Source: Pseudomonadota bacterium (GTDB lineage: Archaea; Thermoplasmatota; SW-10-69-26; JACQPN01; JAJPHT01). Taken from it: DNA of 23,716 nucleotides. Of the stretch, positions 13,263 to 19,772 are shown in pieces (within the stretch, counting starts at the first letter, position 1; every line of letters starts with the position of its first letter). The notes below the pieces were generated by a model. That model was not told where the DNA came from, made no database searches, and worked only from the letters and a program-made list of their open reading frames with translations. The stretch spans positions 1-23,716 of the forward strand of contig JAJPHT010000002.1 in assembly GCA_021325135.1 (NCBI GenBank), read 5' to 3'. The translations under genes and the position numbers were made by a program.

Positions 13263-13306
13263 CCATGGCCTCAGAAGCTAAGCTCCGCCCCGGCGCTGGG
13301 GCGGCC

Positions 13307-14128
13307 ATGACGAAGACGGCCCCCGACCTGAGGCCCGAAGGGTGGGACTCCGCGTCCGCTTCCTACGAGCGCGTGATCGCCCCCAACACCGCGCGCTACG
13401 CGGAGGACCTGCTGCGCGCGGCGGGCGTGCGCGCCGGGGAGCGCGTGCTCGACGTCGCGACCGGCACGGGCGCCTTCGCCCTCCTCGCCGCGCGCCGGGG
13501 CGCCAAGGTCCTCGCGACGGACTTCGCGCCGGAGATGGTCCGCCGCCTGGAGGCGCGCGCGGCGCGCGACGGGATCGCGGGCATCGAGACGCGCGTCATG
13601 GACGGCCAGCGCCTAGACCTCCCCGACGCGTCGTTCGACGCGGCCGCCTCGGTCTTCGGGCTGATCTTCTTCCCCGACCGCGGCGCGGGCCTGCGCGAGA
13701 TGCGCCGCGTCCTGGCGCCCGGCGGGCGCGCGGGGATCGTCGCGTGGAGCGCGCCGGCCCGCGTGCGCGTCGTGAGCGCCGTGAGCGACGCGGTGCGCGC
13801 GGCGCTGCCCGAGCTTCCTTCGCCCGCCTCCACGCCGCCGGTGTTCAGCATGGCGGACGCCAAGCGCGCCGAGGCCGAGATGCTGGAGGCGGGGTTCCGG
13901 GACGTGCGCTCGACCACGCTGGACCACGCGTGGGAGTTCCCCACGGCGGAGAGCGTGTGGACCGACCTCGCGCCCGCCTCGCCCGTCTTCGCGGCGATGC
14001 TCGCGACCCTGCCGGAGGAGAAGCTCGGCCGCGTCCACCGCGCGCTCGTGGAGAGCCTCCGCGCCGAGTTCGGCGCGGGGCCCGTGAGGCTCTCCGGCGA
14101 GGCGCACGTCGTCGTGGGGACGCGATAG
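13307..14128 (+). CDS. Class I SAM-dependent methyltransferase (UbiE-like)
   Basis: VLDVATGTG, TDFAPEMV, MDGQRLDLPDASFDA and EMRRVLAPGG. Start ATG 13307 (alternative 13265). Confidence 0.92.
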   Translation: MTKTAPDLRPEGWDSASASYERVIAPNTARYAEDLLRAAGVRAGERVLDVATGTGAFALLAARRGAKVLATDFAPEMVRRLEARAARDGIAGIETRVMDGQRLDLPDASFDAAASVFGLIFFPDRGAGLREMRRVLAPGGRAGIVAWSAPARVRVVSAVSDAVRAALPELPSPASTPPVFSMADAKRAEAEMLEAGFRDVRSTTLDHAWEFPTAESVWTDLAPASPVFAAMLATLPEEKLGRVHRALVESLRAEFGAGPVRLSGEAHVVVGTR

Positions 14129-15032: not shown

Positions 15033-15452
15033 TCAGGAGCCGGCGGCCTCGAACTCGCGCTCCTCCCACATGTCGTAGGCCATCCCAATGGCGGCGGCCT
15101 CCGCGAGCACGCCCACGGCGAAGAAGACGTGGGCCACCAGGAGAGTGCCCCACACCGTGACGCCCGCGACGAGGACGCGGCCGGCGCCCACGTCGAAGAA
15201 GAGGAGCAGCCCCAGCGCGGCCGCGGCGGCTGCAAGCTGGATCGTCGATCGAGCGGTGCGCTTCACGCGGCCGGGCGCGCTGGTCGCCGCGATCTGGCGG
15301 CTGTTCGCGACGGCGAGCCCGACGAGGACGACGCCCAGCGCGAGGTGGAGGAGGCGCAGCCACATGGGCGCCCCGCGGAACGCGCCCAGGAGGAACTCGG
15401 CCACGACGAGCCACGTCATCCAGTAGAGCATCTTCCAGGGGGAGGAGGGCAC
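15033..15452 (-). CDS. 4-TM membrane protein
   Basis: Four hydrophobic segments, two with His (LLHLALG, VAHVFF), ending AYDMWEEREF. Start GTG 15452 or ATG 15479. Confidence 0.8.
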   Translation of the reverse strand: MPSSPWKMLYWMTWLVVAEFLLGAFRGAPMWLRLLHLALGVVLVGLAVANSRQIAATSAPGRVKRTARSTIQLAAAAAALGLLLFFDVGAGRVLVAGVTVWGTLLVAHVFFAVGVLAEAAAIGMAYDMWEEREFEAAGS

Positions 15453-15825
15453 GGCGACCCGACCCGCGCTGGCGTGCATGAACGCGTCGCTCGGCGCGCG
15501 CCACCCCTCACAGAGGCACGTGCGCCCAGTCTTGGGCGTAGACCGCGTCGCCCACCAGTTGCGGGCAGGGGCCATCGACCTCGCCCACGACGCCTCACCG
15601 AGGATCGACCCTGCGAGGGCATCGAACCCGTCGGTGGGGGCCTCGGTTCCTGTTCTAACGCGAGCCTTACGGATTGCACCGCCCTCATCCGCTCGTGCGG
15701 GCCCCCCCTCTCGTGTGATCAGACGACGGGTATTCCTCAGGAGGAACGAAATTCACAACACATCTCAACTCCTCCGACAGAAACTCTGAATCGTTTGCCG
15801 GTGTTCGCTGGCCGGGATCTAAGAA

Positions 15826-18153
15826 ATGAACCGACCGGGGGCCATCTTCATCGGAACCACCAGCCTCGAATTGGCCGACTTGGTCGTCGCGCTCGCGCGT
15901 GGTTTGCGTGTGGGCCGCGAGGAGGTAATCCTTGGCTTTGAGCACGAAGGCGCCAGCATAGAGGATCTGCGTCGGGTCATGCGCGGCGCGCGCCTCTTCC
16001 TTTTCCTTGAGGACGAATCTCCCAACCCTCGCGCGCGGGTCGAAATGGAGATTGCACGAGAACTTCCTGGCACACACATCCGCTTCATACCCCCTTCGCC
16101 AATCACTTACTGGTCTGCTCCGCGGGACGTGGCGGTCTGGGGCTCGCCACGCGGGCTCGCCCAGACGCTCTTGAACGTCCTCTCTGAGCACGATTTCATG
16201 CACGAGCCCGTCCACGAGCTGCTGGATCGGGTCATGGAGCGGAACCATTTTCCCCCGTTTCCCATGGCTGAGGCGCCGCCCCCACGGGCGGAGGGTCCCA
16301 CGGAGGAGGAGGCGATGGCAGGCTTGGGCGCGTTCATGGATGAGCCGGGCGCCGCCGCAGCGCCTCCGCCCGGAGCGGAGCGGTTTGTCAACGTCGCGTT
16401 CGCCGCGCCAGGCGCCTCCCAGTCGTTCGCCGCGTCGCGGTCCCTTGCGCACGACGGCGACTACGTGCTCCGCGTCGCCATCGGCACGCAGCCGCGCGAG
16501 ACCATCGTGCGGGACGCCCCCGCGCACGGCTTCGACGCGGGCCTCCTCCCGGCCGGAGGCGCGTGGCTCGACGTCGTCGTCGCGAGCGAGGATCTCTCCA
16601 TCCCCCACCGCAAGCACGCCATGTTCCTTCCTGACGAGGGGGACGCGTGGGCGTGCTCCTGCCGCCCCGGGAGCGCGCCGCACACGTGCGACCCGGGCTC
16701 GCGCGCGCACGCCATCGACATTCCCGTGCGCACGCCGCGCGAGGGGAACGAGGCGCGGCTCCGCCTCGTTGTCTATTGCATGAACAATGTCGTGCAGTCG
16801 CAGCGCGTGCGCGCGCGCCTCGCCCCCGAGGAGCGCGACGAGGAGGACGCCCTCGAGTCAGTCGTGGACTACACGCTGACGCGCTCGCTGCGGGACGCGC
16901 CACGCCTCGCGCCCGCCGCCGCGGGCATCATGACGAACGACGAGGGAGGCGTCCACCGCATCGTCCTCAACGCGGGGGGCGACGAGGACGCCCTCGTGTG
17001 GCACTTCGGAGACAACTACGTCGACGGCCAGCTCAAGGACGCGCGCTACCAGCTCGCGGTCGTCGCGGCAAAGAACCCACGCGACGACCCCGAGAAGTGG
17101 GACTCGCGCGGGGACATGGCGGGCGGAAGGCCCCTCTCTGAGTTCGCGGCGGACGTGCGCAACCTCGCGCGCTTCGGCGCGAAGGCATGGCAGGCGCTCG
17201 CGAGCACGGAAGCGTCCCAGCGCGTCCAAGCGCTCGCGCGCCTGCGCCGCGAGGGCGGCACGCCCCTGCACATCGCGCGCGCGGAGGACACGGGGCCTGC
17301 CTTCCCGTGGGCGCTCGTGTACGACATCCCCCTCTACGCGGACGAGTCGCGCTGGCGCGACTGCGACATCATGCAAGACGCCACGAGACTCGCGGACGCC
17401 TCTCGCGCGACGTGTCCGCTGGGGCCGCACAAAGAGGACGTCATCTGCCCGTACGGCTTCTGGGGCGTGCGGTTCGACCTCGCGAACCCCGCCTCGTCCA
17501 AGGACCGGGATGCGGAGCCGCTCGTGCGCGCCCCGGCCTCGGGTGCGCTCCTCCTTACGGCCCTCAACGCGACCATCGCCACCGCGGGGCTCCACGGGCA
17601 GGCCCTCGCGCGCATCAACCCCACCCGGTTCGTCGTGAGCGACCGCCCCACGCGGGAGGGCATCCGCGCGGCTCTCGCGGACGCGAACCTTGCCATCCTC
17701 TACTTCTTCTGCCACGGACGGAATGTGCTCAACTCGTCCGCGAAGCCCACGCTCACGCTCGTGCTCGGCGCGAAGGACACGCTCGACCCGGGGGACGTCA
17801 TCAACTGGTTCGCGGACGAGGACGCGGCCGCCGCGGTGGCGAACTGGCGCGAGCGCCGCCCGCTCGTCTTCATCAACGGGTGCAGCACCGTGCGCGTCAC
17901 GCCCGACTCGAAGCCGAACTTCGTGGACGTCTTCTCGCAGGTCTCGGCCAGCGGCATCGTTGGGACGGAGATCCCGGTCATGCCGGGCTTCGCCGAGGAG
18001 TCGGGGCGCGTCTTCCTCGAGGCGTTCGAGAGCAGCCAGACCGTCGGCACGGCCTTGCGACGTGTGCGCCACGCGGCCTTCGCGCGCGGGAACGTCCTGG
18101 GGCTCGCGTACACCGCCTATGCGCCCGCGGGCCTTCGGCTAGAGGAGGAGTGA
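15826..18153 (+). CDS. TIR/DUF4062-like + beta-sandwich + CHAT (caspase-fold) protease
   Basis: C-terminal ILYFFCHG (His630) and LVFINGCS (Cys686), plus FPWALVYD, CPYGFWG, GIVGTE and LGLAYTAY. N-terminal IFIGTT...LFLFL...VEMEIARE Rossmann-like pattern. The CHAT call is confident; the TIR call is tentative. Confidence 0.85.
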   Translation: MNRPGAIFIGTTSLELADLVVALARGLRVGREEVILGFEHEGASIEDLRRVMRGARLFLFLEDESPNPRARVEMEIARELPGTHIRFIPPSPITYWSAPRDVAVWGSPRGLAQTLLNVLSEHDFMHEPVHELLDRVMERNHFPPFPMAEAPPPRAEGPTEEEAMAGLGAFMDEPGAAAAPPPGAERFVNVAFAAPGASQSFAASRSLAHDGDYVLRVAIGTQPRETIVRDAPAHGFDAGLLPAGGAWLDVVVASEDLSIPHRKHAMFLPDEGDAWACSCRPGSAPHTCDPGSRAHAIDIPVRTPREGNEARLRLVVYCMNNVVQSQRVRARLAPEERDEEDALESVVDYTLTRSLRDAPRLAPAAAGIMTNDEGGVHRIVLNAGGDEDALVWHFGDNYVDGQLKDARYQLAVVAAKNPRDDPEKWDSRGDMAGGRPLSEFAADVRNLARFGAKAWQALASTEASQRVQALARLRREGGTPLHIARAEDTGPAFPWALVYDIPLYADESRWRDCDIMQDATRLADASRATCPLGPHKEDVICPYGFWGVRFDLANPASSKDRDAEPLVRAPASGALLLTALNATIATAGLHGQALARINPTRFVVSDRPTREGIRAALADANLAILYFFCHGRNVLNSSAKPTLTLVLGAKDTLDPGDVINWFADEDAAAAVANWRERRPLVFINGCSTVRVTPDSKPNFVDVFSQVSASGIVGTEIPVMPGFAEESGRVFLEAFESSQTVGTALRRVRHAAFARGNVLGLAYTAYAPAGLRLEEE

Positions 18154-18157
18154 GATC

Positions 18158-18574
18158 ATGGCCGACGCGACGCCACTTGGCACCGTCCTCGCCCTCGGGA
18201 ACGACGCGCTCGCGATCGCCGGCGCGCTCTCGTTCGGCGTCCTCCTTGGTTGGGTGACGCACCGGACGGTGCGCCGGCAGAAGGCCGCGCCCACTCTCGC
18301 GGACGTGGGGACCGTCGCGACGACGCTCCTGGGCGCCGCCATCACGGCCGTCTTCCAATCGCCTGGGCTCTTTGGCGCCTACGGCATCGGGCTGGCCATC
18401 GGCTTCTTCTGGTACCTCCGCCACGCGGAGAAGCGCGAGACCGCGTGGAAGAAGGCAGCGCAGGCGGCCATCGACGCGGGAAAGCCATTGCCCGTCGACG
18501 CGCCCGAAAGTATCAACGTCGACCTTTGGATGAACCAGGCGCCCACGCAGCGTGGGCCGACGCCGCCCCCGTGA
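18158..18574 (+). CDS. Small ~3-TM membrane protein coupled to the CHAT protease gene
   Basis: ATG 4 nt after the CHAT stop with a GAGGAGTGA SD. Hydrophobic segments ALAIAGALSFGVLLGWV, VGTVATTLLGAAITAVF and LFGAYGIGLAIGFFWYL, then a ~50-aa soluble tail. Confidence 0.85.
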   Translation: MADATPLGTVLALGNDALAIAGALSFGVLLGWVTHRTVRRQKAAPTLADVGTVATTLLGAAITAVFQSPGLFGAYGIGLAIGFFWYLRHAEKRETAWKKAAQAAIDAGKPLPVDAPESINVDLWMNQAPTQRGPTPPP

Positions 18575-18824: not shown

Positions 18825-19772
18825 TCACAGGATGATGTCGATGTCCAGCTTCTCCGCCAGCTCCTTGTAGCGGTTGCGGATGGTGACCTCGGTCACGCCG
18901 GCGACGTCGGCCACCTCGCGCTGCGTCCTGCGCTCGCCGCAGAGGATGCTGCTGATGTAGAGCGCCGCCGCGGCGACGCCCGTCGGGCCGCGCCCGCTCG
19001 TGAGCTCCTTGTCCGCGGCCTGCTTGAGGATCTCCACGGCCTTGGCCTGGATCTCGCCGCTGAGCTTCAGCTCGGAGCAGAAGCGGGGGATGTAGTCGAT
19101 GGGGCTCGTGGGCATGAGCTTCAGCTTCAGCTCACGCGCGATGAAGCGGTACGTGCGGCCGATCTCCTTGCGGCTGACGCGGGAGGCGTCGGCGATCTCG
19201 TCGAGCGTGCGGGGCACGTTGCACTGGCGGCAGGCGGCGTACAGGCTCGCGGCCGCGACGCCTTCGATGCTGCGGCCGCGGATGAGGTTCTTCTGCACGG
19301 CGCGGCGGTAGACCATGGCGGCCGTCTCACGCACGTTGCGGGGAAGACCCATCCTGGACGCCATGCGGTCCAGCTCGCTGAGGGCGAAGGCGAGGTTGCG
19401 CTCCGTGGCGTTGCTGACGCGGATGCGGCGCTGCCACTTGCGGAGGCGATACAGCTGGGCGCGGGACTTGGTGGGGATGTTCTTGCCGTAGGAGTCCTTG
19501 TTGCGCCACCCGATCTCCGTGGAGAGACCCTTGTCGTGGATCGTGTAGGTCATGGGGGCGCCGACGCGGGCGCGCTTCTCGCGCTGCTCGTGGTCGAAGG
19601 CGCGCCACTCGGGGCCCTGGTCGATGAAGTGCTCGTCGAGGACGAGGCCGCAGGATTGGCACACCAGCTCGCCGCGTTCGTAGTCGCGGGCGATCTGCTT
19701 CGACCCGCACTCGGGGCACTGGGTGATCTCTTCGACCTGCTCGTCGGCGTTCTTCTTGTCTTGGGGCGGCAT
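18825..19772 (-). CDS. tfb: Transcription initiation factor IIB
   Basis: Zn ribbon CPECG...[36 protein letters not shown] and [13 protein letters not shown]. Confidence 0.98.

Follow-up and report, generated by a model that had tools for sequence, protein, structure and literature searches.

The window analysed here, a stretch of 23,716 nucleotides on contig C47 of an archaeal metagenome-assembled genome (MAG; 3.77 Mb, 72% GC), carries an open reading frame (ORF) at 15826-18153 on the plus strand that encodes a protein of 775 amino acids (aa), P0001. Its residues 184-775 form a conserved CHAT protease, here called the chassis, and its residues 1-183 form a leader of deviating base composition. 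We tentatively favour the reading, to which we give a little less than an even chance of being right, that residues 1-183 are a lineage-specific leader which joined a horizontally acquired CHAT protease late, in a slot for variable input modules, and that its TIR-like head is regulatory and not a canonical NADase. Late addition is suggested by a break in the GC content of third codon positions (GC3) at the start of family homology, by the lack of the gene in 60 relatives of the host, by a break in synteny at this locus and by the overwhelmingly bacterial membership of the family.

A compositional seam at the start of family homology

An initial annotation of this DNA had described a swapped-in module of different base composition at 15826-16260, and its hand counts are exact: GC is 60% in the 60-nt lines starting at 15901 and 16021, against 80% and 77% in those starting at 16501 and 16681. 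Sliding-window GC amounts to 0.61-0.64 over 15800-16250 and to 0.73-0.77 beyond 16250. By codon position (first/second/third), GC is 0.69/0.47/0.72 in residues 1-124 and 0.72/0.51/0.93 in residues 184-775, and the GC3 profile that had been proposed as a check bears out the claimed difference, with 0.72 in the leader versus 0.93 in the chassis (Fisher's test, p 4.5e-10). The genome-wide GC3 average is 0.95, and a GC3 this low is found in only 1.9% of the 125-codon windows from 1075 long reference ORFs of the same genome.

The boundary of the module has to be moved downstream. Residues 125-183 have a GC3 of 0.80, which is below that of the chassis (p 0.0014) and shows no difference from residues 1-124, and the best single GC3 change point (maximum likelihood, log-likelihood gain 21.6) lies after codon 187 (support 180-210), where it coincides with the start of family homology at 'PPRFVNV'. 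Deviating composition is therefore a property of the whole leader, residues 1-183, and not just of residues 1-145. The described Pro/Ala/Glu-rich linker is present in the translation at residues 146-183 (16261-16374); it is predicted to be disordered (predicted local distance difference test, pLDDT, <50), and its GC3 is still low (0.79). Among 44 high-GC homologues the leader-minus-chassis difference in GC3 is -0.054 +/- 0.053, whereas here it is -0.21, a drop four standard deviations beyond these homologues and thus exceptional for the family.

A variable slot upstream of a conserved chassis

A first protein search returned the protein itself as a 651-aa call together with two distant relatives, whose alignments begin no earlier than residue 184 or 303; P0008-P0012 came from a profile search, and P0007 is a 98%-identical fragment. 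A scan of one genome per species yielded 182 relatives of the chassis, whose matches begin at query residue ~172-186. They are almost all bacterial (Streptomyces, Actinoplanes, Kribbella, Acidobacteriota, Chloroflexota), with one Thermoplasmata MAG among them, and 80 of the 182 loci (L026-L105) were fetched for detailed comparison.

In these 80 loci everything open upstream of the chassis was translated and compared with Pfam. Leucine-rich repeats were found in seven leaders, HEAT repeats in one and a zinc ribbon in one; most leaders had no known domain, and neither TIR nor DUF4062 was detected in any of them. Pairwise comparison and tblastn showed the leaders to be dissimilar to one another and to the leader of P0001, and those of P0008 and P0009 consist of short helices only. 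The alignment of homologues thus confirmed the N-terminal variability that had been predicted. The swapped-in module on a conserved chassis is supported, since homology begins only at residue ~184, the leaders upstream of it are unrelated in relatives and the GC3 change point lies at this very junction. To judge from these sequences, the slot is hypervariable and would hold the variable input modules of the family.

Some individual leaders deserve mention. That of P0010 (L027, Actinomycetota MAG JACQTL010000155.1) contains a zinc ribbon, at 23.9 bits versus a cut-off of 25, and also a weak class III nucleotide-cyclase-like region (E 0.0056), which might possibly be a signal-making domain in the same slot. 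The sole other archaeal homologue found (L060:2292-6884, Thermoplasmata MAG JAXDQP010000038.1) has a leader of ~900 aa made of repeated, apparently exported units (recurring 'GDLRLT'; two immunoglobulin-like copies), followed by a transmembrane (TM) helix and then the chassis, a layout like that of transmembrane CHAT anti-sigma factors such as DdvA. In a Micromonosporaceae MAG (L053:1586-4492, minus strand), a second protein of 968 aa, WD40-like plus CHAT-like, is encoded ~0.5 kb upstream of the chassis homologue. A proposed homology of residues ~107-140 to the leaders of P0008, P0009 and P0011, which are short and helical, would have placed the start codon upstream of Met125; it was rejected, the pairwise BLAST comparisons not being significant. 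A hidden Markov model (HMM) of the leader scored 14.9 bits versus at most 10.2 in 300 shuffles and was not used, because its alignment depended on the Pro-rich linker together with the fixed RFV anchor.

The chassis and its membrane partner

In the chassis (16375-18153) a beta-rich region, which contains two Cys/His clusters, precedes a caspase-fold protease of the CHAT type. AlphaFold, supplied with a 69-row alignment, modelled residues 184-775 at pLDDT >90, and Foldseek matched this model to separase SPD-CD, Csx29 TPR-CHAT, DdvA, SAVED-CHAT (among the matches the filament 8tl0), caspase-9 and gingipain (E 1e-8 to 1e-4, probability 1.0). His630 (FFCHG; 17713-17715) and Cys686 (INGCS; 17881-17883), the dyad of the CHAT domain, are invariant in the 69 aligned family members. 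Pfam CHAT PF12770 stays below its gathering score (18.8 bits versus a 24-bit cut-off, E 1.2e-3, residues 589-751). Despite this sub-threshold match, the chassis is a genuine CHAT protease of the separase/Csx29-like kind, with a caspase-hemoglobinase fold and a His/Cys dyad, and the initial annotation had correctly recognised a conserved protease in it. The chassis has no recognisable signal-binding domain.

The first Cys/His cluster (16654-16689), C277-x-C279-x6-H286-x-C288, is nearly invariant, with C277, C279 and C288 conserved in at least 90% of the 69 sequences. In the second (17362-17448), C513, C530 and C541 are invariant, and H535 nearly so, with the same conservation of at least 90%. 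From this pattern the two clusters are probably two metal sites.

Four nucleotides 3' of the CHAT gene lies a gene for a Gly-rich protein of 138 aa with three TM helices (18158-18574, plus strand). In at least 66 of the 80 loci, tblastn detects this 3-TM partner of the chassis family (E 1e-20 to 1e-5) at a distance of up to ~700 nt from the chassis gene, either on the same strand, downstream or upstream, or convergent. The protein has the motif CFG.V.GW.TYRTL.R...SD.A.V.GA.GG. It belongs to no Pfam, NCBIfam or PADLOC family; among PHROGs it gave a weak match to one of unknown function (E 2.9e-4) and non-significant matches to holin PHROGs (E 0.12 and 0.51). The CHAT gene and the 3-TM gene look like an unnamed two-gene cassette.

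Fold of the N-terminal module

The N-terminal module proper, residues ~5-124 (15838-16197), is a sequence orphan, delimited by AlphaFold, the ESM Atlas and composition. The motifs on which a TIR/DUF4062-like identity had been proposed are all in the translation (IFIGTT at 7-12, ARLFLFL at 55-61 and ARVEMEIARE at 70-79, with E73...A77). AlphaFold predicts strand 7-11, helix 14-26, strand 34-38, helix 45-52, strand 56-59, helix 66-79 and helix 108-121, and an extra helix at residues 129-139 (16210-16260) closes the folded part of the leader. The order b-a-b-a-b-a...a-a, with three strands and five helices, was the same in both runs. Confidence was low, pLDDT being 56 for the stand-alone module modelled without an alignment; in the full-length model residues 11-30 reached 77, and residues 81-110 stayed <50. 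A TIR fold is built of five parallel strands and five helices in alternation (bA-aA ... bE-aE), and residues 80-107, the expected site of strands D and E, have a pLDDT <50.

In the ESM Atlas, the nearest clusters by features of residues 1-124 were TIR_2, an unnamed viral family and DUF4062 (0.90-0.92), and by structure model every named neighbour was TIR_2 or DUF4062 (TM-score 0.62-0.70 over 115-131 residues). The stand-alone model, compared with the PDB by Foldseek and VIA-align, found generic beta/alpha folds only, the TIR domain of SpbK (9phb) being ranked second by Foldseek with probability 0.77 and E 0.024. A CheY-like receiver domain, which would have an acidic pair following strand 1 and a phospho-acceptor Asp following strand 3, was considered and rejected: strand 1 ends in GTTS, there is no Response_reg match, and CheY-type chains are only generic fold matches (E 0.04-0.07).

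Profile methods did not single out any family. With hmmscan at E up to 1, neither residues 1-145 nor the whole protein matched TIR_2 (PF13676), TIR (PF01582), ThsB_TIR (PF08937) or DUF4062 (PF13271), and a genome-wide scan with PF13676, at E up to 10, had no match at the window. The corresponding genome scan with PF13271 found C8:40958-41224 (29.8 bits) and not the window. This match belongs to the one bona fide DUF4062 protein of the genome (G000:C8:40907-42541, L014:1408-3042; 544 aa, DUF4062 plus a TPR-like helical region), which has no detectable sequence similarity to the module. When the module was aligned by hhalign with 11 archaeal DUF4062 domains, the local P was 0.013 with a probability of 3% (0.5% in global mode), the S.TE.E..A motif was not reproduced and E73 did not fall on the conserved DUF4062 Glu.

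Searches for relatives were negative as well. Residues 1-145 had no matches in Pfam, PADLOC, NCBIfam or PHROGs; an exhaustive phmmer search of 1.84 billion cluster representatives gave no relatives and one spurious repeat match; and the best hit among PDB sequences was an ATPase of a type III secretion system (E 0.21). Likewise, tblastn of these residues against the 80 family loci and their own genome returned nothing, the per-genome E values from 401 genomes of the phylum, searched in six frames, were 8e-4 or weaker, as by chance, and pattern scans of JGI metagenomes and IMG/VR found nothing. One long tblastn match in L053 (E 0.2) was dismissed as a junk frame antisense to real genes.

Taken at the strength of these models, residues ~5-124 are likely a parallel alpha/beta domain, and TIR/DUF4062-like is the best single guess for its fold, at about even odds. 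The identity proposed by the initial annotation is thus only weakly borne out, by the Atlas neighbours and the predicted beta/alpha order, but nothing specific to TIR came out of the HMM, profile-profile or PDB fold searches. Of the comparisons that it had called for, the one by Foldseek has the SpbK TIR in second place, at an E of 0.024, and the profile-profile one gives an hhalign probability of 3%.

Translation of the leader and alternative explanations

Translation from Met1 appears probable. The most likely start codon is the ATG at 15826-15828, the first after an AT-richer intergenic stretch. Codons 1-124 show three-base periodicity (p 5.7e-5), with p 3e-4 for codons 1-60 and p 6.5e-6 for codons 106-145; in the 138 nt just upstream (15688-15825) no frame is periodic (0.59/0.52/0.57, p 0.81), and so the periodic signal starts at this ATG. 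The leader frame is continuous with the chassis frame, and a frame of 124 codons was kept open in only 3.3% of shuffles. In 742 genes of this genome the positions -45 to -25 before starts are AT-enriched, and the spacer before ATG 15826 fits this pattern. The 16S rRNA gene is absent from the MAG, and with it the anti-Shine-Dalgarno sequence.

A number of points tell against the reading that we favour. Codons 61-105 alone are not periodic (p 0.43), and the ESM feature overlap of 141/256 falls in the range that the tool gives for chance matches or distant relatives. Conservation cannot confirm coding, because the leader has no sequence relative at all. The GEM gene call P0002 starts at Met125 (16198-16200; 651 aa, 100% identical, 84% of the query), and this form, with a short helix, a Pro/Ala linker and the chassis, has the layout of P0008. 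Glu73 and Glu75 are in the predicted third helix, where TIR enzymes keep their catalytic Glu, so that a catalytic role may exist.

The gene call at Met125 is the starting point of an unlikely alternative, in which the protein would start there (or at Met137 or Met147) and 15826-16197 would be a 5' leader with an in-frame remnant of older coding sequence. The similarity of the Met125 form to short-leader homologues such as P0008, the GC3 of 0.72 against a genome average of 0.95, the lack of relatives, the low AlphaFold confidence, the many frames that stay open in DNA of 72% GC and the 3.3% of shuffles that keep this frame open would all be in keeping with it. Yet residues 125-183, which would then necessarily be translated, have an equally low GC3, and the break lies at codon ~187 and not at 125; periodicity sets in exactly at ATG 15826, and Met125 has neither a Shine-Dalgarno-like motif nor an AT-rich patch upstream. 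A 5' untranslated region of 370 nt would also be unusual in archaea. Four sources other than GEM call the 775-aa form, which is held by NCBI, JGI/IMG, ENA, Logan and the ESM Atlas, and the sense frame has coherent TIR-like Atlas neighbours, whereas the antisense frame has none. Alternatively, the leader might be translated and yet be a young 5' extension from non-coding or scrambled DNA, with no stable fold or specific function, whose TIR-like matches come from alpha/beta-prone composition. We regard this as very doubtful: the complete orphan status, a composition between intergenic (0.55) and genic, the predicted disorder of residues 81-110 and the aperiodic codons 61-105 are what such an origin would leave, but periodicity is strong on both sides of those codons, the secondary-structure elements are regular, amphipathic and reproducible in AlphaFold, and 10 of the 10 named Atlas neighbours are in one fold class. 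Finally, a minus-strand gene, either the whole ORF 15685-16710 or the stretch 15688-16260 of it with 191 aa, is highly improbable as the source of the periodicity. Its frame, too, stays open and shows the periodicity in mirror image (0.72/0.47/0.69), but the 46 codons that it needs beyond 15826 are not periodic, the well-supported chassis lies opposite its 5' half, it does worse than the sense frame in codon log-odds, its sole Pfam match has an E of 0.087, and its Atlas values (score 0.83, recognition 1100, no family) are like those of a non-gene.

The remaining alternative accepts translation and differs in function: the head would be an active enzyme, an NADase or signal synthase of the TIR/DUF4062 type, joined in cis to a caspase-like effector as a one-polypeptide analogue of type IV Thoeris, with Glu73 (or Glu75) as catalytic residue. 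DUF4062 domains act as TIR-like NADases in which a Glu is essential (10.64898/2026.05.01.722283), and in type IV Thoeris a TIR protein makes N7-cADPR, by which a caspase-like protease is switched on in trans (Rousset et al., 10.1101/2024.10.24.620036). The TIR_2 and DUF4062 neighbours in the Atlas agree with this idea, as does the homologue with a weak nucleotide-cyclase-like domain in the same slot. So does the position of the candidate acidic residues, Glu73-Met74-Glu75 (16042-16050), within predicted helix 66-79, which is preceded by a hydrophobic strand and a ~10-residue loop. In TIR domains the catalytic Glu begins helix C and lies in a pocket that the BB loop closes; neither an alignment nor a confident model puts Glu73 or Glu75 at this site. 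On the other hand, no TIR_2, TIR, ThsB_TIR or DUF4062 profile matches, even at E 1-10, nor does any PADLOC Thoeris model; hhalign gives 3% and leaves E73 off the conserved Glu; the leader contains no S.TE.E or W...E signature; the slot holds mostly sensor-type repeats; and the chassis lacks a recognisable signal-binding domain. Relatives among the CHAT proteases are known to be switched by assembly. We therefore favour a regulatory head over an active NADase, which we judge unlikely, because the slot is mostly of the sensor type, a recognisable catalytic signature is missing and CHAT relatives are activated by assembly.

Proposed role and relation to known systems

In the regulatory reading that we propose, the leader would have joined a horizontally acquired CHAT protease late, in the slot for variable input modules. 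Residues ~5-124 and the helix up to ~140, translated from ATG 15826, would form a small three-layer alpha/beta domain with TIR and DUF4062 (NIR) as nearest look-alikes. This flavodoxin/TIR-like head may self-associate or bind a nucleotide-type ligand, by which the CHAT domains would be brought together or released, and the active His630/Cys686 protease would then work with the conserved 3-TM partner.

Several known systems resemble parts of this arrangement. DUF4062/NIR domains (PF13271; Swarozyc, TEP1) also have ~120 residues and an N-terminal position in multidomain proteins; their start 'VFI(S/G)S..DL' resembles IFIGTTSLELADL here, their hydrophobic third strand is likewise followed by an acidic helix, and their clusters are among the nearest Atlas neighbours. 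The module differs from them in that no profile matches, the active-site signature S.TE.E..A is replaced by RARVEMEIA, and the partner domain is a CHAT protease instead of a STAND, TPR or auxiliary stalk region. Type IV Thoeris shares with P0001 the combination of a TIR-type module, a putative one in P0001, with a caspase-fold cysteine protease (ThsE) of intact His/Cys dyad, as well as the nature of an accessory, patchily distributed gene. It comprises, however, two proteins and the diffusible signal N7-cADPR, whereas here a single chain would do the work, and the protease here is in a separate separase/Csx29-like CHAT family with its own 3-TM partner. Membership in type IV Thoeris was rejected, since neither the protein nor its N-terminus matches a TIR_2 or ThsB profile or a PADLOC model.

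The closest parallels of residues 184-775 are Csx29 TPR-CHAT (Craspase), SAVED-CHAT, DdvA and separase, the best fold matches (E 1e-8 to 2e-5), in which a C-terminal catalytic domain likewise follows a variable N-terminal region as input. Their inputs are TPR, SAVED, TM or HEAT-like, unlike the small orphan alpha/beta domain of P0001. The EACC1 membrane-associated two-gene caspase system ('System 4'; Kaur et al. 2020, PMC7159879) is similar in its enrichment in actinobacteria and in having a small, conserved membrane protein, Gly-rich in its TM segment(s), beside a caspase-superfamily protein with a highly variable extra region. The membrane protein of EACC1, though, is a single-TM protein whose gene precedes that of its partner on the 5' side, whereas here it has three TM helices, is usually encoded 3' or convergently and matches no Pfam family; the order of domains is also reversed, the caspase being N-terminal and the variable domains C-terminal in EACC1. 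On account of the ~3 TM helices of the partner and this reversed order, membership in EACC1 was rejected.

Genomic context

The CHAT gene is preceded by a 250-nt AT-richer spacer and then by a divergent membrane-protein gene. Within this spacer the stretch at 15650-15825 has a GC of 0.53-0.56 and is presumed to be the promoter region of the plus-strand gene. The AT-rich spacer is common to the CHAT gene and the divergent gene (15033-15575, minus strand), whose product is a multi-TM protein of 180 aa without a Pfam family. On the other side, an archaeal tfb gene is located at 18825-19772 on the minus strand. The relatives sampled suggest that the host belongs to the phylum Thermoplasmatota. A homologue of the chassis gene is found in 0 of 60 relatives of the host archaeon, including four genomes of the same genus. 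Synteny with all four ends exactly at the stop codon and 3' end of tfb (18824/18825), and each genome has different genes there; this break marks a variable spot. In the genome G002, the methyltransferase gene (window 13265-14128) is only ~0.9 kb from tfb, and in the window ~4.7 kb, from the tfb 3' end back to ~14130, with an AKR, a membrane protein and the CHAT pair, occupy the variable hot spot. When the junction was scanned for repeats and scars of mobile elements, only short chance repeats were found, and the window contains no Rfam families.

Implications

Even on a modest reading, the locus is a clean case of a domain-fusion junction to which a seam in composition points exactly, and it illustrates how gene callers disagree on orphan N-termini. 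Should the N-terminal stretch prove untranslated, the finding would shrink to an annotation caveat. Particular to this case are the orphan, compositionally foreign head, the unnamed CHAT family with its conserved 3-TM partner and the archaeal host. We know of no study of type IV Thoeris-like or DUF4062 immunity in archaea. The most far-reaching possibility, which we consider quite unlikely, is that the archaeon took up a bacterial two-gene CHAT-protease/3-TM cassette and equipped it with a NAD-processing head of the TIR/DUF4062 type that evolves fast, giving a single-chain 'TIR-caspase' immune switch in which a signal maker or sensor and an executioner protease would be united in one polypeptide. 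Should the head work as a TIR-like module, P0001 would be a cis-fused counterpart, in an archaeon, of the TIR-to-caspase signalling recently discovered in bacteria, on a CHAT family whose conserved membrane partner is nameless in every library searched. It would then show how modules of the immune type come to be shuffled onto protease chassis from one domain of life to another.

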